Positions 5,129 to 21,212 of a stretch of 64,000 nt of DNA are shown here, piece by piece. Position 1 is the stretch's first letter, and every line of letters begins with the position of its first letter. Made by a program: the position numbers and the translations under genes. Under the pieces are notes generated by a model. That model searched no databases, had not been told where the DNA came from, and was given only the letters and a program-made list of their open reading frames with translations. Origin of the DNA: Candidatus Omnitrophota bacterium. Lineage in GTDB: Bacteria; Omnitrophota; Gorgyraeia; Duberdicusellales; 4484-171. The stretch spans positions 12,963-76,962 of the forward strand of contig JBAWWL010000010.1 of assembly GCA_037146775.1 (NCBI GenBank), in the 5' to 3' direction.

Positions 5129-5226
5129 ATTGTTTCAGATGTTAGTGTTGAGATGCCAGGCATCAGAGGCCAGATGTCTGATTCGAGAAAAAAATTTATC
5201 TGTTCCCCGGCTCTTGTTTTATATCT

Positions 5227-5359
5227 TCTATCCTCTGTCTTCTGCCTTTTACCCTCTGACTTCTGTCTTCTGATCTCTGTCTCTTGTCCCCTGACTTTTA
5301 TTTTCTATCTTCTGATTTCTGTCCTCTGTCTTCTGACCTCTGATGTCTGACTTCTGTTC
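5227..5359. repeat. Degenerate heptanucleotide tandem array, about 19 units of TCTGNCT
   Basis: Direct reading: tctgtct tctgcct … tctgacc tctgatg tctgact tctgttc. The array abuts the TGA stop of the HydG-like gene. A second copy of the same array lies at 53908..54019. Confidence 0.85.
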
Positions 5360-6181
5360 TCAGTCCCAAATATCCTCTATCTCTTTGATGTCTTCAAACC
5401 GGAATACCGGACCATCTTTGCAAATATAAAATTTGCCTAAACGACAATGGCCGCATTTGCCCAAACCGCAGCTCATATTTTTTTCCATCGAGAGATAAAT
5501 ATTAGTAGGTTGCAATCCTAAATCAAGCAGTTTGAGTGTTGCAAATTTCATCATAATTGGCGGGCCGCAAACTATACCAATCGCTTCGGGTAAGCATAGC
5601 GGCAGCTTATCCAAGAGCGTGGTAACGATGCCCACGTTCCCTTTCCAGGAGTTATCGGCTCGGTCAACAGTGAGCCGGAATTCGACATTATTTTGTTTTT
5701 TGAATTCATCGAGTTGATATTTATATACGATATCTACAGGGCTGCGCGCGCCGTAGCAGATAATAATTTTCTTAAAATCGGTTATACGCGCATAAAGCGC
5801 GTAAATTAAAGAACGCAGTGGCGCCAGTCCAACCCCGCCGCCAACGATGACCAATTCTTTTCCCTTGAAGCTATCAAGCGGGTACCCGTTGCCGTAGGGG
5901 CCGCGTACGCCAAAAATATCGCCTGGTTTAGCTTTGTGGAATAGCTCGGTTACCTTACCCACCCGCATAATGGTTACCTCGAATCCGTCTTTACGGTTAG
6001 GATTGGATGAGGGAGTAAACGGAGCTTCCCCCACCCCGGGGTACGTTAATTCGATAAATTGTCCGGTTTCAAAAGAAAAATTCTCCTCCGGCTTAAAAAT
6101 AAAAGTTTTAATGGTCGGTGTTTCTTCTATAATTTTGGTAACCGTAACTTTCTCGGGCAGATAAATTTGTTTAGTTTTCAT
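5360..6181 (-). CDS. FAD/NAD(P)-binding oxidoreductase with C-terminal 2Fe-2S (sulfhydrogenase gamma HydG / AsrB / PyrK-like)
   Basis: Ferredoxin-NADP-reductase-like fold signatures (GGGVGLAPL). C-terminal CGLGKCGHCRLG…C motif as in PyrK/HydG. Confidence 0.7.
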   Translation of the reverse strand: MKTKQIYLPEKVTVTKIIEETPTIKTFIFKPEENFSFETGQFIELTYPGVGEAPFTPSSNPNRKDGFEVTIMRVGKVTELFHKAKPGDIFGVRGPYGNGYPLDSFKGKELVIVGGGVGLAPLRSLIYALYARITDFKKIIICYGARSPVDIVYKYQLDEFKKQNNVEFRLTVDRADNSWKGNVGIVTTLLDKLPLCLPEAIGIVCGPPIMMKFATLKLLDLGLQPTNIYLSMEKNMSCGLGKCGHCRLGKFYICKDGPVFRFEDIKEIEDIWD

Positions 6182-11879: not shown

Positions 11880-13394
11880 TTATTTTATTTTTCGTGCAGA
11901 CGGTAATACTGCCTGGGTAATTTTAGGCAACGTTCCGAATAAGTTTTTGTATGCTTCGTTATATGCGTCTTTACCTGCGGCGAGCGCAAAAGTATAAGGC
12001 ATTACTGTTTTTGCTTGCAGGCTCATTGCTTTACTGACGGCGCGAATATCCCATTGTGCATGGCTGTCTTCGCGTAAGCGAGAAATATGATATAACTCTC
12101 TTGCGTTTATTCTCATTAACACACGGCGCCGGTGTGCATTGGTAAGTATATAGGCGGCCGTCTGGGGTATTTTTTTTCTAATGGCGTCATACGTGCGGTT
12201 AGTTTTTTTGATAATTTCTTTAAAATATTTTTCCATGCCCACTTCCTTGATTGATAAAGGAATTGTTACACCGAGTTGTGGTTCGTAGCTTTGGGCGGTA
12301 ATGGTAGACATGCGATGCCGTTTGAGTTGTCCGAAACAGGCGGCGGAAAGTATTATTTCAAACGTAAGATGTGCGTATTCAAATTCACGCAGCATGGAAT
12401 CGTAGAATTGCATATGTTTGCATGCGGCCTTAAATAGAGTTTGTAGTTTTTTTGGGCTCATTTTTTTTATGATACGTTTGCACTCAAGATATGATAAGTT
12501 GGTTACACTGTGTAATAAGCTCGCTGCAACACGTATATCGCCGTCTTTGCTGTATTCGACCAACGAAACCTCTTTTGCCTCGTGGTATAGCGGTTTATGT
12601 ACGCAGGTAGTTTGGGTGGATTTTATCGTGGCACGCAGCTCCGGATAGGTATAGCGGTCCCGGTCATTCGCTTCATAAAAAAGAACAATCGATGGCGCAA
12701 TTTCCGCTATTTGTGCGTGTATTGTTTTACCGAGGTCCCTTACTTCGGCTAGTTCGCTGGAAGCAAACCGGCGTAACATCAATTCAAGATTGCGGGCGTT
12801 GATGGTGAGCCCGACCTGCGATTGTGTTGCAAGGGATGTTATATAGCGTGCGTCTTCTTTTGCCCATCCTTCCAGGAGACTGTGATTTTTAGGGTCAGCA
12901 GCCAACGCACTATTTTTCTTAAAAACATATTCTTTGAGGCTGTCGAATAGCCGCGTGTATGCCTCATTTTGTTCATGAATGAGCGCGGTAAATTGCTTTT
13001 CTGTCGGTGTATTTTTAATTTCCTGGGGAATGACAAAATCCCGGTCTAGTGTTACATAACGTTGAGATTTCTCGGTATATGAGCAAAGCCTAAATTTTTC
13101 TACCTCTTCCATTGCCAGCCGCGAAATTTCCAGGATATCAAGGTTGAAGATTGCGTGTTCGGCAACGGAGTGGTGCCCCATTTTAAAAATAATGCTAGAA
13201 TTAGATTTTCGAGCGCGGTTAACTTCCGATCGTGCGTCTTTTCTTATCTCGTTGATTGGCCGAGGATCCCTGGAAATACGGGCGTAAGCCGCCGAAAGGA
13301 CTTCCGGAGTGACATCATCGCGATGGCCTCCTTTTTCTTGTAATTCCTGCAAAACAGAACTGTCAACATTGTAACCAGCTAAATAAACTTTCAT
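11880..13394 (-). CDS. thyX: FAD-dependent thymidylate synthase ThyX, tandem-duplicated (double-length)
   Basis: 504 aa. First half has HHSVAEH + KSQRY + NARNLELMLRR. Second half has the canonical RHRMSTITAQS + NARELYHISRLR. Confidence 0.75.
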   Translation of the reverse strand: MKVYLAGYNVDSSVLQELQEKGGHRDDVTPEVLSAAYARISRDPRPINEIRKDARSEVNRARKSNSSIIFKMGHHSVAEHAIFNLDILEISRLAMEEVEKFRLCSYTEKSQRYVTLDRDFVIPQEIKNTPTEKQFTALIHEQNEAYTRLFDSLKEYVFKKNSALAADPKNHSLLEGWAKEDARYITSLATQSQVGLTINARNLELMLRRFASSELAEVRDLGKTIHAQIAEIAPSIVLFYEANDRDRYTYPELRATIKSTQTTCVHKPLYHEAKEVSLVEYSKDGDIRVAASLLHSVTNLSYLECKRIIKKMSPKKLQTLFKAACKHMQFYDSMLREFEYAHLTFEIILSAACFGQLKRHRMSTITAQSYEPQLGVTIPLSIKEVGMEKYFKEIIKKTNRTYDAIRKKIPQTAAYILTNAHRRRVLMRINARELYHISRLREDSHAQWDIRAVSKAMSLQAKTVMPYTFALAAGKDAYNEAYKNLFGTLPKITQAVLPSARKIK

Positions 13395-13406
13395 AATTGT
13401 ATTGAA

Positions 13407-13667
13407 TTAGTGTTTATGTGTAATACGATAAAGGCTAAATGCGACGAGCGCATAGGCAAAAAGGCGGATAGTAATTATTGTTTCTTGCAATAATGTTTCG
13501 AGCCCTTGGATCGCGAGAATATGTGCTATTGCAAATATGCCAAATGCTGTCGCGATAAGTGCGGCTAATTCATTTTTATCTTTTTTATAGCCGCTATAGC
13601 CAAGTATAAGGATGGTAAGACATAATATTAAATTAATGATATTGATCGGATCAACTGCAAGTGACAT
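13407..13667 (-). CDS. Small hypothetical membrane protein
   Basis: 86 aa with two or three hydrophobic helices. Confidence 0.35.
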   Translation of the reverse strand: MSLAVDPINIINLILCLTILILGYSGYKKDKNELAALIATAFGIFAIAHILAIQGLETLLQETIITIRLFAYALVAFSLYRITHKH

Positions 13668-13844
13668 TTTTCCTCCTTTGATTGTGTATGTGTGTCATAT
13701 TATATGCATAACAAAACGAAAATATTATAACTCCTTTTCGGTTGATAAGCAAAATAAAATATTCGGTTCACAAAAAATAAGGTATATTTTTTGTGCGCGT
13801 TTATAGTTATTGAGAGTGTACATATTTGGCATGTTGCAAATAGT

Positions 13845-14267: not shown

Positions 14268-14581
14268 TTTTACCCCCTTCTTGGTGTGGCGTATTACATA
14301 ATTCGAAATAGTACGTATTTTACAGCGTAATAGCTTTTTTTCAATAATTTAGGTATAAGGTCATAAACAATAGCTCAATGTTTTTAAGGATAAATAGCAT
14401 AAAATATACGATCTTCTAATATTATCAATGGTTTTAGTTGTTTTTTGCAGAAAAATATGTTACTCTTAAATTGATGACAATCTGGTTTCTGATAAAGGTA
14501 AACCAAGGGTAACCTTGGGGCGCAAAGCTACCTATCCCGATATAACCGGGAAAGAGGGGTTACCAGAAAAACCATGTTTTT

Positions 14582-14609
14582 CCTAAGTTTTTCTGACTTA
14601 GGTTTTTTT
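14582..14609 (+). terminator. Intrinsic terminator-like hairpin (cctaagt-ttttctg-acttagg) followed by a T7 tract
   Basis: Perfect 7-bp stem followed by ttttttt, read directly from sequence. Confidence 0.5.
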
Positions 14610-14616
14610 ATTTAAG

Positions 14617-14656
14617 CCCTCAAGGCGCGCGATGTGTGTCTTTGAGGGTTTTTTTT
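14617..14656 (+). terminator. Second terminator-like hairpin (ccctcaa…ttgaggg) followed by a T8 tract, immediately 5' of the RBS of ORF 14670
   Basis: GC-containing stem followed by tttttttt, then GGAGGG and the ATG at 14670. Confidence 0.5.
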
Positions 14657-14669
14657 GGAGGGCTAAATA

Positions 14670-14927
14670 ATGAAAAAAGAAATAGCGTTTGCAGTAATCT
14701 TGGTAAGTATTCCTTTCCTTGCGTTTGCCGGTAGCACAGCTAACGTAAGAATATCGTGTGTTATCCCGGAACGAATTGAACTAAAAAGAACAGCCGTATC
14801 TGGGCCAACGGAATCGAATAATCAAACTGAAACAAAAAATAACAACGACAGCGAATATACCCACGCCAACAGCGAAATCCTGCGCGAGGGTAACCGGATT
14901 ATCATTGAAACTGTAGTGGTAAAATAA
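14670..14927 (+). CDS. Small secreted hypothetical protein
   Basis: Strong SD (GGAGGG) upstream and a signal peptide (MKKEIAFAVILVSIPFLAFAGS). 85 aa. It is the only plus-strand gene in this 30-kb stretch. Confidence 0.4.
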   Translation: MKKEIAFAVILVSIPFLAFAGSTANVRISCVIPERIELKRTAVSGPTESNNQTETKNNNDSEYTHANSEILREGNRIIIETVVVK

Positions 14928-14959
14928 TTATTAAAACTACAGTGCAAGGTTAGGGGTGG

Positions 14960-17830
14960 TTACTTTTTTTTAAGTGGTACAGAAAAATTGTGCGTAAATC
15001 CTTCCGAAACTTCTATCTCACTTTTTACCGCCACCGTAGGCAAATATTCTAAGGGCAATGAGTTTACGTCTAGGATTACACTATGTTTCCCCGGCTTAAT
15101 ATTCGCAAAAAAATAGGCCCCCTTATCGTTGGTGAGAGTTGTCTTTTTGCCGTCGAGAATCAATTTTGCTTTTGCAATAGGAGTGTCTTGGGTGTCTAAT
15201 TTCCCGTTGCCGTTTTCATCGTAAAAAATAACACCAGCGATCCCTGATGTTGAAGAGATTCCAAAAGCTATTTTTTGAGATGCTGATGACCGCGAGCTTA
15301 CTTGGAATGATGAAGGTGTGGTAATTATATAGCCGCGAGGAATACTAGTCATGTCTATCATGGCGTATACGCTTTCGGCACGTAAGGAAATAGAAAATTT
15401 CCCTTCTTTATCTGTGACGGTCTCGGTAGGTCCGGCAATTATTTTTATTCCCCCCACCCCCTCTTCAGCACCACTCCTGATACCGTCAGCATTACTATCC
15501 TTAAAGACTATACCTCGGATACGTAATGACGGTGTCCAGCGAAAAAAACTATCCCAGGCTAACCTAACTCCCAGGCGTGCTTCTGCTTCAATGAATTTAG
15601 CTACATCAGGATTTTCTGCCCAAACATTGCGTACCCTACCATCAAAAAAATATTGAATATCAGGTTTAGGTGAATAAGTAACATTAACAGTCCCCTCTAG
15701 ACTGTCTTCCCCGGAAAGAAATGAATGAATGGTGGTGGCGTTTTGTTCATCGCGATAGTAAGCGCGTATGGTAGTAGCCCAAGAAGGGCGGAATGCATGG
15801 TAGAAATCAACACCGCTTTCCATTACCGATGGCGTTGAACGCGTGTTGGAAGCAATTTCGTCTACCCAAGAATAAGTAATATTTGAATAAAGATAAATAT
15901 CGCGTAATAACTCTAGCCTCGCTCCACTTAAAATACTGTTACGTAGATAGTCTGAGCTTGCCGAGAGCGGATTAACGCTACTTTGATAGTTATATCCAAT
16001 ATTCGTATAGAGCGCATGGGTACGAAAAAGCGGTATATCAAAGCGTTTATTATAATTGGTTTGTGCATTTAAATTACGCTGCGGAAAAGACAACCCTGGA
16101 GAATTGGTATAGTAAAGACTTGCGGACAGATTCGATGTCGGATCAAAAGTGATATGTGCAAAATTATCCCACTCGACGTTAAGCGCGTCCGGGTTATCTT
16201 CTTTAAGGAGCAATTTATTACGATAGACGTCTATGGCAGTATTGAAGGAAATCTTATCTGTAGGCTGCCAATCAATACCAGCCAATGTTCCTATTTCTCC
16301 GCTGGCAGAAGGCCTTGAACTTATGGTCATAAAATCTTTTTCAATATTGCGAAAAGCGCAGTGTAGAATTGCGCGAGGTAATTTCCATTTATACATAACA
16401 TTAGCGGCAGTTTTTTTCTCGTCAGATGCGATTTCTGAAGCAAGCGTGGCGTTGGGGAAAATATGATTGCTCTGAAAAGAGAAAACCTTACTTCTTAAAA
16501 AATTCTTCCTATCTTGGCCATAACCGTGCGCATAATTAAGGTAAAAATTATTTTTTTTATAGGGGAAAAATCCTAATCTTAATCCTTCTATGTACGAATC
16601 TTGTTTTAGTCCGAGTACTGGGGAGAGAACACTTTGATAATAGGTACTTTCCCGGCCATAGATAACGTTGTATTGCAAATTTTTATTAAACATCGGCGCT
16701 TCTACCGAGAAACCGCGTAAGGTAACTCCTGGGACCGACAGTGAAGAGAACGGTTTAGTAAAATCAAAGCCACGTAATTTCAAGTTTTCAAATCCTAAAA
16801 AATGCCCGTCGGTTAATCCGGTGGTATAACTTGTTACTTTTTGATCTTGGTTTTGTTTTGACCATGAAAGGGAGGCATCGAATTCGCCATAGGGGGTAGG
16901 GCCAATCATGCCTGCCCATTGGTCAAAGGTTAAGCTCTGGCGTTTCATCGTGCCTAAGCGTCTTCCCCGGTAATATTGCCCCCAGTCTGAACGGTACATG
17001 AATTTAAATCCTTTCCCTTTTTCCCAGGTATTTTGTTTTTCATCAAAAAATCCAGACGGGACTACTTTTATTTGCAGTGTCCACCTAGCGTTACTATCCC
17101 AGATATGTAGAAAGGTTGACCCAACTTTTACGGCAACGATCTTTACGGAATTAGCGTTGATACGTTCGATTAGAATAATTTCCGGATTAATAGCTAAAAA
17201 ACGGGCTATACCAGAGCCTTTTACAATAAAAAATTCATCTAGAGAAAGTTGTGCGGTAAGAGGAAATTTATCTTTTGCATCAATGCTAAGTTCAATTGCC
17301 CCCTTTTCCTTTAATTCATTTTCTGTTTTTTTCCCCTGATATACCGGTGCCTGATTTATTTTTGTTTTAGATTGTTGTGTTTGCTGAATATCTTTGTTAT
17401 TTTCAATGATTATTGGTTGATTGTCTGCGGTAAGAGTCAACTTTTCTGGTTCTTTTTCGTACTGTTTGCCAGGTTCTGTCGGTATTTTCTTTCTGGGAGG
17501 GGCGAGCTTTTTTAGTGGTTGTGCTTGCGTTTTTTTCTGTAACTTTTCTACTACGGTTTTTTGCTGCTTTTTTGTAGCCGGGGTTTCTTCTATGACGCGA
17601 CCATCGATGGTTCGCTTTATAAGGTTAATATAAGAACGCGGTTCTTGAGCGCTTGGTTCGACTATTTCTGCAAGATGAAAATAATGAAGCGCGTTTCGGT
17701 AGTCCCCTTCATTTAATTCTTCTTTGCCGATTTCAAGCAGATATTCATATGAAGAAGATTCAGCATAAGCGGGTAGGGTAAGTAAACAAGAGCACAGCAG
17801 CAGTATATATAAAACAGCGATGATTTTCAT
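14960..17830 (-). CDS. Large outer-membrane beta-barrel protein with CpaC-like pilus N-domain and C-terminal CnaB/SdrD-B-type repeats (usher-like)
   Basis: Signal peptide, TPR-like segment, Lys/Gln-rich linker, and a LSLDEFFIVKGSGIARFLAIN…STFLHIWD block resembling the pilus-formation N-terminal domain of secretins. About 500 aa follow with an aromatic/Asn-rich alternating pattern (beta-barrel-like), then two roughly 90-aa blocks (…KDSNADGIRSGAE…, …YDENGNGKLD…) like SdrD-B/CnaB folds. Confidence 0.5.
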   Translation of the reverse strand: MKIIAVLYILLLCSCLLTLPAYAESSSYEYLLEIGKEELNEGDYRNALHYFHLAEIVEPSAQEPRSYINLIKRTIDGRVIEETPATKKQQKTVVEKLQKKTQAQPLKKLAPPRKKIPTEPGKQYEKEPEKLTLTADNQPIIIENNKDIQQTQQSKTKINQAPVYQGKKTENELKEKGAIELSIDAKDKFPLTAQLSLDEFFIVKGSGIARFLAINPEIILIERINANSVKIVAVKVGSTFLHIWDSNARWTLQIKVVPSGFFDEKQNTWEKGKGFKFMYRSDWGQYYRGRRLGTMKRQSLTFDQWAGMIGPTPYGEFDASLSWSKQNQDQKVTSYTTGLTDGHFLGFENLKLRGFDFTKPFSSLSVPGVTLRGFSVEAPMFNKNLQYNVIYGRESTYYQSVLSPVLGLKQDSYIEGLRLGFFPYKKNNFYLNYAHGYGQDRKNFLRSKVFSFQSNHIFPNATLASEIASDEKKTAANVMYKWKLPRAILHCAFRNIEKDFMTISSRPSASGEIGTLAGIDWQPTDKISFNTAIDVYRNKLLLKEDNPDALNVEWDNFAHITFDPTSNLSASLYYTNSPGLSFPQRNLNAQTNYNKRFDIPLFRTHALYTNIGYNYQSSVNPLSASSDYLRNSILSGARLELLRDIYLYSNITYSWVDEIASNTRSTPSVMESGVDFYHAFRPSWATTIRAYYRDEQNATTIHSFLSGEDSLEGTVNVTYSPKPDIQYFFDGRVRNVWAENPDVAKFIEAEARLGVRLAWDSFFRWTPSLRIRGIVFKDSNADGIRSGAEEGVGGIKIIAGPTETVTDKEGKFSISLRAESVYAMIDMTSIPRGYIITTPSSFQVSSRSSASQKIAFGISSTSGIAGVIFYDENGNGKLDTQDTPIAKAKLILDGKKTTLTNDKGAYFFANIKPGKHSVILDVNSLPLEYLPTVAVKSEIEVSEGFTHNFSVPLKKK

Positions 17831-18636
17831 TAATCACGTACGTTGGAAATTAGTACTTCTCCTTGTGGCGAAAAGGAAACATCAATTTCTTTAACTAATA
17901 CGTCACCTCCTTCTAGGTCAAAATTAAAAAAGAGCGTGTAATCGCCAGGCGAGATATCTTTTGGTAAGGAGATTTTAATTTCTGTCTTATTCCCTGGCAG
18001 AGTGTAAAGCTCAGGCGTTGTCCCTCTATCAGCTACTATACCCTTTGCATCCATAATATAGTAAGAACCTTTAGCGTAAAGGAAAGTTTCGCCGCCGTTA
18101 GTGAAGCTTCCAGTGAATGAGCGGCCTTTAGCCGCTAAAGCGTCAAAAACAGCTTTCTTTTTACCCGGTTTTGGTTCAATAATTATTAATGAACCTACTC
18201 GGCCTAAAATCATAACAGTTTTACCCTCCTGGTCAAACCCCTTCCCGATAGTAGTTTCGAAGAAAAGAACGCCGCAATGTACTTTCGTAAAGCTTGCGTT
18301 TGGTTTTAGATTGAGTTTAATTTCTTTACGTTCACGGGCAGCTAGATTTATTTCTTGCGGTGCGAAGCTAATCCATGAAGCAAGAGAAGTGTCGGTTGTA
18401 CCAGGAGAGTAAAACTCTTTTGTTCCGTCGAAAGGAGAAACATATACGAAATCTTCCAGATATATGCGCACGGCAACCGGAGTATCAAGCGTATTTTCTA
18501 CATTGATGGTATCGCTATAGGTATCAGTTACGGCAAGATAAGTGTGTATTTTGGGGTTATCAATTCTCAGTGCAAAAGCTGATACCGGTAGCATTGTAAT
18601 AATAGCGCATAACGTAATAAACCTGAAAAATAGCAT
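17830..18636 (-). CDS. Secreted periplasmic protein, possible pilus chaperone-like
   Basis: Signal peptide. Alternating beta-strand pattern (DTINVENTLDTPVAVRIYLE) reminiscent of the PapD-family N-domain. Tightly coupled to flanking genes. Confidence 0.35.
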   Translation of the reverse strand: MLFFRFITLCAIITMLPVSAFALRIDNPKIHTYLAVTDTYSDTINVENTLDTPVAVRIYLEDFVYVSPFDGTKEFYSPGTTDTSLASWISFAPQEINLAARERKEIKLNLKPNASFTKVHCGVLFFETTIGKGFDQEGKTVMILGRVGSLIIIEPKPGKKKAVFDALAAKGRSFTGSFTNGGETFLYAKGSYYIMDAKGIVADRGTTPELYTLPGNKTEIKISLPKDISPGDYTLFFNFDLEGGDVLVKEIDVSFSPQGEVLISNVRD

Positions 18637-18667
18637 TATTTCTCCGTTTTTCCTCTTGGCATAAAAA

Positions 18668-19291
18668 CTATTGTAATACTACTGAAAATGTAACTGTGCC
18701 GTTATATGTTCCGGCTGGTTTATCGGTTATCGGCGCAGAGCCAGCTGGTTCCCCTGGTGCTCCGGTAGCTAATCCGTAATATGCGCGCACAATTCTGGGT
18801 ACACCCGCATTTCCATTATAAATTACTTTGTTGGTCGCAAAAGCAAGTGATGTGGCAGTGAAACTATCTCCGGCCGGCATAGCCCCTTGAGCAATGCCAT
18901 TAACCGCGTCTTGCGATTTATAGTCGGGTGTCATCATAAGGTTATTGTTAAGATCGCTTCCGCCGGTGGTTGTAAAGCCGTTGCAAGTTTGTTGCAGCCT
19001 ATATGCGCTGCCGGCAGTTCTTCCGATCAGAAATACCGTAAAGTATTTTCCAGCAAGATAGATACCATTTGTTTGATCGTAAGTAAGTGTGCCAAAATCC
19101 ATGCTTGTTACTGCCGCTGATCCTGCTCCGTATGGGTCAACTCCTGGTGGTGCTGATTGTATCCAATAGGTTAATTCAAGTCCTGAAGGTACGATTGCGC
19201 GTACGGGGACACTTGCAGTACTGACAGCAAATGCCGGGTTGCTTAAGGCAACCATTAATGTTGCGACGATTAGGGTTATTATACGTCTCAT
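18668..19291 (-). CDS. Secreted Gly/Thr/Ala-rich fimbrial subunit-like protein (SCPU / Csu-pilin-like)
   Basis: Signal peptide. Small-residue-rich composition. C-terminal …YNGTVTFSVVLQ beta-strand resembling spore-coat-protein-U / archaic chaperone-usher pilins. Confidence 0.4.
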   Translation of the reverse strand: MRRIITLIVATLMVALSNPAFAVSTASVPVRAIVPSGLELTYWIQSAPPGVDPYGAGSAAVTSMDFGTLTYDQTNGIYLAGKYFTVFLIGRTAGSAYRLQQTCNGFTTTGGSDLNNNLMMTPDYKSQDAVNGIAQGAMPAGDSFTATSLAFATNKVIYNGNAGVPRIVRAYYGLATGAPGEPAGSAPITDKPAGTYNGTVTFSVVLQ

Positions 19292-19309
19292 TTAATCTCC
19301 TTTCATCCT

Positions 19310-20710
19310 TTAATGTTCCACTAAAGCGTAACTAATTTGTGCACGATAGTCTCCTGCCTTGGTATCTATGGGTACCTTGAGTGAATATTTCATCCGTATA
19401 ACTGAGGCATCACCGTTGGCATTTGAATTGAACACAACTGTGTCACCTAATTTTACCGGCACCCATTGGCTACAAAGCACTTCTCCTTTTTGGCCCTCTC
19501 CTATTTCGCCCAAATAGGTAAATAATTCTGCAGGAATCACATCTCCTTGGTTATTCGTAAGCGGAGCAGCCATTTTTTGCACTATCGAATATGGTTTTGT
19601 CATATTCGTTTTGATCTTAAGTATCACCTCCTTTTCTATGGGCGAATTCTCCTCAGTAACATTACTAAAATATAATCCTCCTGCGGTATCTGCTTCAACT
19701 GCAATTTCAAAAACTCTTTCGATATTTATTTGTATTTTTAACGGCAGACGCTTAAGCATTACGCCGTTTGATTCGAGTGTATAAACAATCATTCCCTGGA
19801 AAATTCCGCTTCCTACAGTATTGAGGCGATTTAGGTCAATATTAAAATTAATCGTTACGATATCGTTTTCACCTTGCGCGTCAGATGTATATATGGGTAT
19901 GGTTTTGAGCGTTATATTAGTTGGTGACGCATAAAGCGTTTGGCCGGTTTGTGCAGAAACTAAGAACGATAAAGCCTCATTGGGAAAAGATTCGTTTTTC
20001 TCGTTACGCAATGGCTCTTCGATTTGTTGTATAATTTGAATGCGTTCCCTTGTTTTTCCGGTTAGGGAAATTGTAATATTACCTTGAGCGTTGTTGTCGG
20101 AGGCTGATATTCGTAATAAATCAGCGCCTTGAGAGGATGTGGTTATTTTTACTTCAAGCTGTTGCTCAATAGTAAGATAAACATTTAAGATAAAAGTTTC
20201 TTCGCTCATTCCCCCTTCTATTGGTTTAAGCGTATACAGGATTCTACCTAAAAAATTTCCCGAAGCGTTAATCTTGCTATTATCAAATTCATAGGCAACA
20301 ATAAATGAATCGCTATTACCATTGGCTGAGGAAGTATAAATTACTTGTTCCATTGTATCCAGCGGTACCGGTGAAAGTTGATAAAGGCTACCCGAAGCGT
20401 TGCTCCCTTGCAGAGTATAAAAGTTTATCGCCTCACGGTCAATAAATACCCCCTGGTCGTTACGCAGTGGGTCAAGCAGGCGTTGGCGTATTTCATATTT
20501 TTTGCTCAAGTCAGAATTGATACGTATTTTGACTTGACGGCTTTGTCGCGCAAAAGAAGCGGTCCTGCTGAAACGCAAGCTTGTATCGCCGTCGATTGGA
20601 AGCACGGTAAGGCTGTTCGCGGCCCATGATGACGGAGAAGCCAGGAGACCAAGAAAGCAAAAAAATACAATAGCGGCTATTTTCTGTATATACCGTACTG
20701 CGTGTTGCAT
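19310..20710 (-). CDS. Large secreted protein with three internal repeat domains (putative adhesin / tip subunit)
   Basis: Start moved to the internal Met (MQHAVRYIQKIAAIVFFCFLGLLASPSSWA), which gives a good signal peptide. Three roughly 150-aa repeats each end in …YTLK, …YTLE and …YALVE. The ORF track gives 19310..20815. Confidence 0.4.
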   Translation of the reverse strand: MQHAVRYIQKIAAIVFFCFLGLLASPSSWAANSLTVLPIDGDTSLRFSRTASFARQSRQVKIRINSDLSKKYEIRQRLLDPLRNDQGVFIDREAINFYTLQGSNASGSLYQLSPVPLDTMEQVIYTSSANGNSDSFIVAYEFDNSKINASGNFLGRILYTLKPIEGGMSEETFILNVYLTIEQQLEVKITTSSQGADLLRISASDNNAQGNITISLTGKTRERIQIIQQIEEPLRNEKNESFPNEALSFLVSAQTGQTLYASPTNITLKTIPIYTSDAQGENDIVTINFNIDLNRLNTVGSGIFQGMIVYTLESNGVMLKRLPLKIQINIERVFEIAVEADTAGGLYFSNVTEENSPIEKEVILKIKTNMTKPYSIVQKMAAPLTNNQGDVIPAELFTYLGEIGEGQKGEVLCSQWVPVKLGDTVVFNSNANGDASVIRMKYSLKVPIDTKAGDYRAQISYALVEH

Positions 20711-21212
20711 TACGCCAGATAGTGTTTGTAATTTATGATAAAAACCGGTACTCACTCTGATCTCCCTTTCTGTAACTTGATAAATAGAAACATTTACATT
20801 TGCAAAATATAGCATATTTTACTATATTTTTCAAGGCAAAACAGTTTTGCGAATTGACTCACATTAAGTGTCGCTCAAATATTTTATACGGGTATTGTTT
20901 CAGTCCGAGACTGATCCGTTCCCTGGCGGAGACACATAATTAATTTAACCAAAAATATATAATAATTTTATTATAGGGGGTTCGTGGATTAAATCTATTG
21001 TACCTAGGTATAACAAGACATGGTTAACTTTAGAATGAATATATGATTAATGGTGTTGTCTATCGGACCAAGTTGATTTTTCCTTTATGCTCATTAAGGA
21101 ACGGCTCCACGGTAGGTGCGACAAAATATTGATAGGCTTTTATTAAGCCAAAAATGATTATGCCGACTATAATGAGTTTTTTTATCATTGCGTATTGTAA
21201 TGTTAGCGCGAG

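Follow-up and report, generated by a model that had tools for sequence, protein, structure and literature searches.

The question raised by this locus is whether four tightly packed genes of an uncultured bacterium, whose products are labelled in NCBI as 'hypothetical protein' or 'SdrD B-like domain-containing protein', together encode a machine that builds surface fibres. The genes lie in a 64,000-nucleotide stretch of a Candidatus Omnitrophota assembly (GCA_037146775.1, contig JBAWWL010000010.1, positions 12,963 to 76,962 of the forward strand), which we call the window and in which the first letter is position 1. The initial annotation had described four linked, co-directional genes and had read them as a highly divergent fimbrial system of the archaic chaperone-usher type. 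We observed that the four genes are present as described, all on the minus strand, and we refer to them as G1, PIL, CHAP and USH:

19310..20710 (-): G1, 466 amino acids from the methionine at 20710; a secreted protein with three tandem subunit-like repeats
18668..19291 (-): PIL, 207 amino acids; a secreted protein and the putative major fibre subunit
17830..18636 (-): CHAP, 268 amino acids; a periplasmic chaperone-like protein with two immunoglobulin (Ig)-like domains
14960..17830 (-): USH, 956 amino acids; a usher-like outer-membrane protein

We estimate, from sequence and predicted structure, a probability of about 0.7 that this locus encodes a chaperone-usher-like machine for assembling fibres at the outer-membrane surface of an Omnitrophota bacterium. 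The computed supports for this reading are the chaperone fold of CHAP together with its homology to EcpB, the usher-like architecture of the USH model, and the co-inheritance of the genes. The core of the initial annotation, i.e. a divergent chaperone-usher-like system in a non-proteobacterial lineage, was retained, but membership of the usher family was not.

The four genes are closely packed, and the start of USH overlaps the stop of CHAP by 1 nucleotide (nt). At the N-terminus of each of the four products, a hydrophobic signal peptide with a final AxA-type site was recognised by eye. The G1 open reading frame (ORF) extends over 19310..20815 (-) and would give 501 amino acids from its first start codon, while the homologues of G1 have 445-491 amino acids. 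CHAP and USH, as well as a small protein that we describe below (sm), showed full-length identity to annotated proteins of a Candidatus Omnitrophota metagenome-assembled genome (MAG), and the corresponding match of PIL spans 94% of its length.

We then asked how widely the gene set is conserved. One genome per species was scanned with one peptide pattern, a survey that more divergent systems would escape. A relative of CHAP was found to be encoded at 64 loci from other genomes, nearly all of them from Candidatus Omnitrophota; the remaining labels were 'uncultured Planctomycetales', 'Planctomycetia' and one Ca. Elulimicrobium. When all the ORFs of these 64 loci were scanned with hidden Markov models (HMMs), the order G1-PIL-CHAP-USH, with one to three copies of PIL, was seen in virtually every locus that was long enough. 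G1 comes first in nearly all the related loci, and the genes around the cluster differ from one locus to another. The neighbourhoods of four distant CHAP homologues gave the same picture, with all four genes present in this order among other neighbours. Such an arrangement is far beyond chance, and the conserved co-occurrence across the 64 loci establishes that the genes are clustered and co-inherited.

A more remote form of the gene set was also seen in a MAG labelled Synechococcales (L068, 5492..10784 (+)). It encodes two proteins of ~180 amino acids, a CHAP homologue of 268 amino acids (hhalign P 3e-19) and an outer-membrane protein of 972 amino acids, the C-terminus of which is of the CarboxypepD_reg type, the same type of C-domain as in USH. 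The covariance model that we built for the riboswitch described below had no match at this locus. The locus could reflect a true spread beyond Omnitrophota or a contamination of the bin. Chaperone-usher-like genes of cyanobacteria, slr1667 and slr1668, have already been reported.

Among the four proteins, CHAP provides the link to known chaperones. Its AlphaFold2 (AF2) model, built from a 35-sequence alignment, has a predicted local distance difference test score (pLDDT) of 93.4 and a predicted TM-score (pTM) of 0.82, and consists of two all-beta domains (residues 23-155 and 162-267). When the model was compared with the PDB using Foldseek, the chaperones CfaA, Caf1M, YadV, FimC, SafB, EcpB, CsuC, PapD and SfaE were ranked directly after the best match (the protein WxLIP, considered below), with full-length matches and E values of 1e-10 to 1e-7. 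The target-normalised TM-scores to the chaperones of chaperone-usher systems were 0.5-0.64, and the model shows the two-Ig boomerang arrangement of PapD-like chaperones. The description of this protein in the initial annotation as periplasmic, beta-rich and PapD-like, and the similarity to Ig-fold chaperones that it proposed to look for, were thus borne out by the predicted structure.

At the level of sequence, a search of the PDB sequences with the 35-sequence CHAP profile (hmmsearch) gave EcpB as the best match, at a marginal E value of 0.021 and covering the F1-G1 hairpin. A 64-sequence profile made from the genome loci aligned with EcpB using hhalign at a Prob of 92% and a P of 6e-7, over 174 columns and both domains, where ~30 unrelated comparisons run as controls gave P values of 0.002-0.6. 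No signal was seen between the CHAP profile and FimC (P 0.25), and neither PapD_N (PF00345) nor PapD_C (PF02753) matched CHAP, both being absent as well from the list of 25 families obtained with its 35 homologues. Pakharukova et al. 2015 (PMC4654587) single out the proline that kinks strand D1, Pro60 in EcpB, as the one residue that is invariant across the chaperone-usher superfamily. In the hhalign alignment, this residue (P80 of the precursor) falls on P93 of CHAP, which is at least 90% conserved in the CHAP family. The segment A-R-I-G of the G1 donor strand of EcpB aligns with the conserved G-R146-V-G148 of CHAP, and Tyr169 of EcpB with Y211. Because of the profile match to EcpB and these mapped residues, CHAP is best described as a remote relative of the non-classical chaperones, in which the anchoring site for the C-terminus of the subunit has changed. 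At one locus (L060, 6947..8626 (+)), two adjacent CHAP paralogues were observed, which may be compared with EcpB and EcpE of the ECP system.

We further examined the architecture of USH. The AF2 model (18 sequences) had a pLDDT of 77, with most of the barrel at 85-95, and could be divided as follows:

17606..17761 (-): after the signal peptide, TPR-like helical N-terminus, residues 24-75; helices from the AF2 model
17060..17311 (-): periplasmic beta N-domain, residues 174-257; resembles PF13629 (T2SS-T3SS_pil_N)
15551..17005 (-): predicted 26-strand beta-barrel, residues 276-760; from the DSSP string of the AF2 model
14963..15529 (-): two C-terminal beta-sandwiches, residues 768-956; SdrD_B / CarboxypepD_reg type

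The helical N-terminus contains a single TPR-like unit; the USH profile matches consensus TPR proteins in the PDB, and TPR_2 was found in 10 of the 18 homologues. It is followed by a disordered linker of ~95 residues rich in Lys, Glu and Gln (residues 79-173, pLDDT <50). PF13629 matched all 18 homologues (best E 8.6e-9; 2.4e-4 for USH of the window). At the C-terminus, PF17210 was found at 4e-14 in two stretches, along with PF13620, and both families were again present in 18/18 homologues. AF2 and Pfam therefore agree with the order of N-domain, barrel and two C-terminal sandwiches given in the initial annotation. When the model was compared with the PDB using Foldseek, the top 11 matches, SdrD aside, were the FimD and PapC ushers, with E values of 4e-18 to 4e-13 over 780-820 columns. 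In the same 18 homologues, no Pfam match to Usher (PF00577), PapC_N or PapC_C was seen in any. Since USH gives no sequence signal to ushers, has 26 predicted strands without a plug insertion, and carries N- and C-domains of other families, we conclude from the model that it is usher-like in its predicted architecture but not a member of the Usher family. Two other identities were tried for this protein and rejected: LptD was absent among the 50 Foldseek matches listed, and a secretin would carry a Secretin domain, of which there was none.

PIL and G1 are the putative subunits. PIL is secreted and is rich in Ala (12.4% of the mature protein), Gly (12.4%) and Thr (11.4%), in line with the composition given in the initial annotation, and G1 is likewise secreted and Gly/Thr/Ala-rich. 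The PIL family, represented by 512 sequences, one for each 50%-identity cluster, has an N-terminus with the alternating pattern F/V-x-V-x-A-x-V-P, seen in the window as the amphipathic strand STASVPVRAIVP, and an invariant G194-x-Y196 before a C-terminal hydrophobic strand, the motif of which in the window is GTYNGTVTFSVVLQ. The three repeats of G1, which had already been noticed in the initial annotation, are homologous to one another (Prob 98-99.6% when repeat was aligned against repeat using hhalign), and each of them is related to residues 63-208 of PIL (Prob 71-94%, P 8e-8 to 4e-5). With the repeats homologous both to each other and to PIL, G1 can be read as three subunit-like domains fused in one chain. 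It is without the long N-terminal extension of the PIL type.

No pilin family of Pfam or NCBIfam was found for PIL (116 sequences) or G1 (24 sequences), apart from isolated matches to DUF4402 at E values of 0.056-0.085. Profile searches of the PDB sequences with PIL (two alignments) and with G1 found nothing, and the hhalign comparisons of PIL, G1 and sm with FimA, EcpA, EcpD and CsuA/B gave P values of at least 0.008, i.e. no signal. We also evaluated the Type V pili of Bacteroidota and rejected them, as PIL has no lipoprotein Cys after its signal peptide and a match to LPAM_1 (E 0.08) covers the signal peptide only. Separately, 6 of 93 members of the PIL family weakly matched NF040942 of NCBIfam (best E 0.001), the model for 'ExtJ', a small protein that belongs to the ext operon for the reduction of selenite and tellurite. 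At four loci (L008 224..1738, L009 2861..4426, L010 3316..4827 and L012 1771..3276, all (+)), an additional protein of ~500 amino acids is encoded upstream of G1. It matches the PIL profile at ~1e-50 and may be a second multi-domain subunit.

A riboswitch and a small convergent gene, both absent from the four-gene description in the initial annotation, were also found to belong to the system. They lie just beyond the 3' end of USH, on the opposite strand:

14487..14567 (+): c-di-GMP-I riboswitch aptamer, upstream of sm; RF01051
14582..14656 (+): leader from aptamer to sm; two terminator-like hairpins, U-runs and the Shine-Dalgarno (SD) sequence GGAGG; putative expression platform
14670..14927 (+): sm, secreted protein of 85 amino acids, convergent with USH; NCBI MEI8350229.1

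The aptamer scored 61.4 bits, where Rfam sets the gathering score at 35, and sits 103 nt upstream of the start codon of sm. By this match, the element is identified as a c-di-GMP-I riboswitch. Using Rfam, we saw the same element at the equivalent position in 14 of 17 related loci, and our own covariance model, for which 13 of them were used, found it in ~50 loci. The aptamers are almost always on the strand opposite to the operon, 210-900 nt beyond the stop codon of USH, and the first or second ORF downstream is almost always a homologue of sm. The leader in the window has a hairpin at 14582-14602 followed by T7, then a second, strong hairpin at ~14618-14648, visible in the sequence and in RNAfold, followed by T8, and then GGAGG. 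In the leaders of the window and of eight other loci, several competing hairpins were seen, and some SD sequences abut the 3' end of the aptamer.

Some loci depart from this pattern. The aptamers of L014, L018, L008, L011, L005 and L001/L002 include several that score best to c-di-GMP-I-GGC (RF03167) or c-di-GMP-I-UAU (RF03168), and the ligand of the riboswitch may differ between lineages. A strong second copy of the aptamer lies ~1.2 kb further on in L013 (5473..5574 (-)), and weak tandem matches stand beside the main aptamer in L036 (6673..6735 (-)) and L026 (11379..11435 (-)). In L063, a c-di-GMP-type aptamer is found on the operon strand itself, directly upstream of PIL (6037..6123 (+)), and no sm homologue was detected by the HMM scan of the ORFs of this locus. 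In a subgroup of loci, a conserved ORF of ~80 amino acids without a signal peptide lies between aptamer and sm, i.e. in L001 (11931..12170 (-)) and L004 (9793..10038 (-)), and also in L005, L008, L014 and L018. It carries the motif ...VV(S/T/A)F(I/L)NR(E/D/K)ELDFLD... and may encode a regulator controlled by the riboswitch. By eye it looked like a ribbon-helix-helix protein, an assignment that was dropped as there was no Pfam match.

In the sm family (43 sequences), the signal peptide is followed by a mature protein with a conserved N-terminus, a variable linker and a conserved hairpin motif at the C-terminus. The mature part has ~64 residues; in the window its N-terminal strand is STANVRISCVIP and its C-terminal hairpin motif REGNRIIIETVVVK. 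The N-terminal consensus of the family is T-x-x-F/V-x-(I/L/V)-S-(V/A)-T-(I/V)-P, and the mature N-terminus of sm aligns in register with that of PIL over 19 columns (P 4.5e-4 to 3e-3). The likeness of the two motifs was higher within a genome than in permuted pairs (BLOSUM 20.5 vs 16.8 +/- 1.2; p 0.0008 over 36 loci, a value that is optimistic as the loci are related). These comparisons point to the N-terminal strand of sm being a mimic of the N-terminal strand of PIL. In 44 loci, the sm homologue lies directly tail-to-tail with USH. In 31 of these 44 loci the two stop codons are separated by at most 15 nt, and in 16 they abut or overlap.

Taken together, these observations suggest the following mechanism. 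All the components would be exported by Sec, for which signal peptides are visible. In the periplasm, CHAP would capture PIL and G1 by beta-strand complementation, in the way of EcpB, CsuC and CfaA. USH would be the assembly pore in the outer membrane, its N-domain and C-terminal sandwiches handling the chaperone-subunit complexes and its barrel letting the fibre pass. The conserved alternating hydrophobic motif suggests that the subunits join when the amphipathic N-terminal strand of an incoming subunit inserts into the previous one. G1 would most likely be the distal tip or a pre-joined segment of the fibre. The riboswitch is expected to control sm, a protein that has the subunit-type N-terminal strand but lacks the body of a subunit, and sm would most likely cap, terminate or inhibit the growth of the fibre in response to c-di-GMP. 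Antisense transcription into USH may add to this effect. That sm is a natural 'donor-strand-only' mini-subunit which, by capping or inhibiting growth, ties the length or abundance of the fibre to c-di-GMP is the reading of the riboswitch unit that we prefer, though a tentative one that may well prove wrong. Equally speculative is the broader picture of a phylum-wide orphan class of chaperone-usher-like systems in Omnitrophota, with a plug-less 26-strand pore, in which growth is set by riboswitch-gated sm inserting its strand into the groove of the last subunit and so capping, terminating or releasing the fibre.

Several observations weigh against a chaperone-usher-like machine. The main gap is in the subunits, as the incomplete Ig fold of a pilin, completed by a donor strand, is inferred for PIL and G1 from motifs. 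With regard to USH, the plug domain is a hallmark of ushers, and the known ushers have 24 strands with the plug between strands 6 and 7; the predicted USH barrel has 26 consecutive strands of transmembrane length without a plug-sized insertion, as read from the secondary-structure string only. The TM-scores of USH reach only 0.3-0.4 with whole usher complexes and 0.46-0.49 (target-normalised) with the barrel-only structures 3ohn and 2vqi, and large beta-barrels look alike in 3Di space. There was no signal between the USH profile and FimD or EcpC (hhalign P 0.12-0.34), and the matches of this profile among PDB sequences were TPR proteins and SdrD only, with no usher. With regard to CHAP, the best Foldseek match in the PDB was WxLIP of Enterococcus faecium (E 4e-12), a protein with no known role as an assembly chaperone. 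Arg89 in strand F1 of EcpB and CsuC is described as 'super-conserved' and anchors the C-terminal carboxylate of the subunit in archaic and alternative chaperones (PMC4654587). In our alignment this residue (R109 of the EcpB precursor) falls on G122 of CHAP, in the consensus G-V-L-F-F-E. Other basic residues of CHAP are conserved (K73 and R204 are invariant, and R146 is present in at least 90% of the sequences), and one of them might stand in for the anchoring Arg. Finally, when the five window proteins (sm included) and their homologues were scanned singly, the Usher, PapD_N/C, Fimbrial and SCPU models had no match in Pfam or NCBIfam, in keeping with the remark in the initial annotation that no Fim/Pap family is matched closely. 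What the member-by-member scans of the homologue alignments returned were generic Ig/fn3-type, PF13629 and SdrD_B matches. No family library recognizes the system.

The match to WxLIP raises another explanation, i.e. that the locus encodes a non-polymerising complex for surface display or anchoring, as in the WxL/Csc system. CHAP would then be a WxLIP-like adaptor tethering PIL and G1, USH an export or anchor pore, and there would be no fibre formed by donor-strand exchange. Besides the structural match, WxLIP_PGBD was found weakly in 14 of the 35 CHAP members (best E 4e-4) and fn3_5 in 20, and the motif-based fold of PIL leaves room for such a complex. However, the TM-scores of CHAP to the pilus chaperones go up to 0.64, at least equal to the 0.47 of WxLIP (both target-normalised), and the sole link at the level of sequence profiles is to EcpB, a true pilus chaperone. 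Scans with Pfam and NCBIfam found no WxL domain in PIL or G1, the organism is a diderm, and the operon holds a usher-like outer-membrane protein. The tandem fusion in G1 and the conserved amphipathic N-terminal strand also fit the logic of a polymer. We therefore consider the display complex to be improbable. Still less probable, to the point of being hardly credible, is that USH is a general outer-membrane transporter or an exopolysaccharide export porin that combines TPR and barrel in the manner of BcsC, PgaA or AlgE/AlgK, with functionally unrelated secreted proteins as its neighbours. It would account for the TPR-like motif at the N-terminus, and TonB-dependent transporters, AlgE and Occ porins do appear in the Foldseek list of USH, with E values of 1e-8 to 1e-6. 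But the ushers are ahead of all these by ~10 orders of magnitude in E value and align nearly full-length (~800 columns for FimD and PapC); moreover, USH has a single TPR-like unit, and neither a plug nor a TonB-box domain is present. A TonB-dependent transporter, named in the initial annotation as the alternative to look for, was rejected on these grounds. No glycosyltransferase or polysaccharide genes were seen nearby, and the fixed order of the four genes across 64 genomes with otherwise different neighbourhoods, together with the overlap of start and stop in the window, does not suggest unrelated neighbours.

For the riboswitch, the alternative is that it acts mainly by antisense, i.e. that a riboswitch-gated transcript running through sm into the 3' end of USH lowers expression of the operon by transcriptional interference or by forming an RNA duplex. 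Where the stop codons of sm and USH are at most 15 nt apart, a terminator cannot fit into the gap, and the convergent transcripts must therefore overlap; in the window, no terminator-like site was found at 14927-14960. Riboswitches that act by antisense have been described (PMC9943018), which also counts for this explanation. Against it, sm is clearly a conserved protein, with its signal peptide, N-terminal strand and C-terminal hairpin kept over 43 divergent loci, and its motif co-varies with that of PIL. We regard a mainly antisense action as unlikely, though less so than the two alternatives above. It is also not exclusive, since the antisense and the sm-protein mechanisms are mutually compatible, and the proposed capping by sm could operate alongside it.

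The surroundings of the cluster were also inspected. Upstream of G1, at 20806..20834 (-), there is a sigma-70-like promoter match (TTGAAA-17-TATATT with a TG extension, 10/12 matches). It is a match to the consensus only and such matches were only weakly enriched over shuffled sequence, so that it is a pointer and no proof of function. In the window, the cluster lies between unrelated housekeeping genes, a tandem ThyX and an HhH-GPD glycosylase. The former, a protein of 504 amino acids at 11880..13394 (-), has two ThyX (Thy1, PF02511) stretches in one chain and looks like a tandem-fused flavin-dependent thymidylate synthase. Among the other loci, all the genes of the cluster are fragmented in L065 (4856..10878 (+)), by pseudogenisation or by frameshift errors in the assembly. 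In L003, group II intron domains (RF02001, RF01998 and RF00029) lie just upstream of G1 (5192..5714 (+)), and a gene for a GAF-GGDEF diguanylate cyclase adjoins sm (12400..13839 (+)), the aptamer match of this locus being weak (23 bits).

Chaperone-usher pili are the textbook case of ATP-independent fibre assembly, and almost everything that defines their known diversity comes from Proteobacteria and from the Usher, PapD and Fimbrial models of Pfam. The present locus would place the same assembly logic in Omnitrophota, where these models missed it entirely. Omnitrophota are uncultured, and many are ultra-small and possibly dependent on a host. The system is thus a candidate organelle for adhesion or attachment in a phylum in which cell-cell interaction is an open question. 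With its EcpB-like chaperone and its predicted plug-less 26-strand barrel, it may also serve as a remote outgroup for the evolution of ushers and chaperones. In the literature that we searched, neither this system nor a riboswitch tied to a system of the chaperone-usher type was described. The locus offers a testable case of a riboswitch coupled to such a machine through a mini-protein that resembles a natural donor-strand peptide, and donor-strand peptides have been discussed as inhibitors of pilus assembly. If the capping by sm is true, a second messenger would act directly on the chemistry of polymerisation in the periplasm.

How the locus compares with known systems can be seen from its individual parts. 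In FimD/PapC and FimC/PapD the same logic is found: the usher combines a periplasmic N-domain with a large barrel and a pair of beta-sandwiches at the C-terminus, and the chaperone has two Ig domains. Unlike the 24 strands and plug of FimD and PapC, the USH model has 26 strands and no plug insertion; in place of PapC_N and PapC_C it has a PF13629-like N-domain and SdrD_B/CarboxypepD_reg-like C-domains, and it carries an extra TPR-like unit and a linker of ~95 residues, with no sequence similarity to these ushers. The Gram-positive WxL/Csc system (WxLIP = DUF916 + DUF3324) shares with the locus the top Foldseek match and the weak WxLIP_PGBD matches of CHAP, but it belongs to monoderm hosts, has no outer-membrane component, and its WxLIP is membrane-anchored.

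The Csu archaic (sigma) pili are, like the present system, non-classical and widely distributed, and CsuC matches the CHAP model at E values of 2e-8 to 5e-8. PIL and CsuA/B (from PDB 7zl4) share three short motifs as read from sequence, i.e. a strand of alternating pattern at the N-terminus, F-G-T-L, and a G-x-Y strand at the C-terminus. The likeness of the C-terminus of PIL to SCPU/Csu pilins, on which the initial annotation had remarked, is therefore real at the level of short motifs, but it does not extend to the profiles, as hhalign of PIL with CsuA/B gave a P of 0.087 with only FGTL aligned, no match to SCPU was seen and DUF4402 was isolated at an E of ~0.06. Membership of Csu/SCPU is not supported by these comparisons, and the label 'archaic' was too specific, with nothing beyond the short motifs in its favour.

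The regulatory part also has its counterparts. GEMM-I (RF01051) riboswitches control adhesion and pilus genes, and here too a canonical aptamer lies upstream of a gene in a surface-appendage locus. The difference is that the gene it would regulate is a mini-protein gene convergent with the assembly operon, and not the operon itself (L063 excepted). PapH and FimI are full-size chain terminators of the P and type 1 pili with the pilin fold, and complexes containing FimI were among the PDB matches of the CHAP model. In the proposed reading, sm would by analogy donate its strand to the last subunit, accept none, and so end growth. Unlike PapH and FimI, sm is limited to a strand at its N-terminus and a hairpin at its C-terminus, and its gene has a separate transcript under the control of a riboswitch.

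Finally, the ECP/Mat system of the alternative pathway (EcpA pilin, EcpB chaperone, EcpC usher, EcpD tip and EcpE chaperone) is the only known system with a link detectable by sequence, through CHAP and EcpB. PIL and G1 show no likeness to EcpA and EcpD, nor USH to EcpC; Arg89 of EcpB is a Gly in CHAP; the gene for the multi-domain protein comes first here; and there is a single chaperone in the window and in most loci, and a mini-protein under the control of a riboswitch at this locus. What the two share is the Pro that is invariant in the superfamily, the G1-strand motif (A/G)-R-(I/V)-G, and a similar list of parts, in which a pilin of ~200 amino acids and a multi-domain protein of ~500 amino acids accompany a chaperone and a large protein of the outer membrane. 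These comparisons lead us to conclude that the nearest relative detectable by sequence is the alternative (ECP) pathway and not the archaic Csu/SCPU one.

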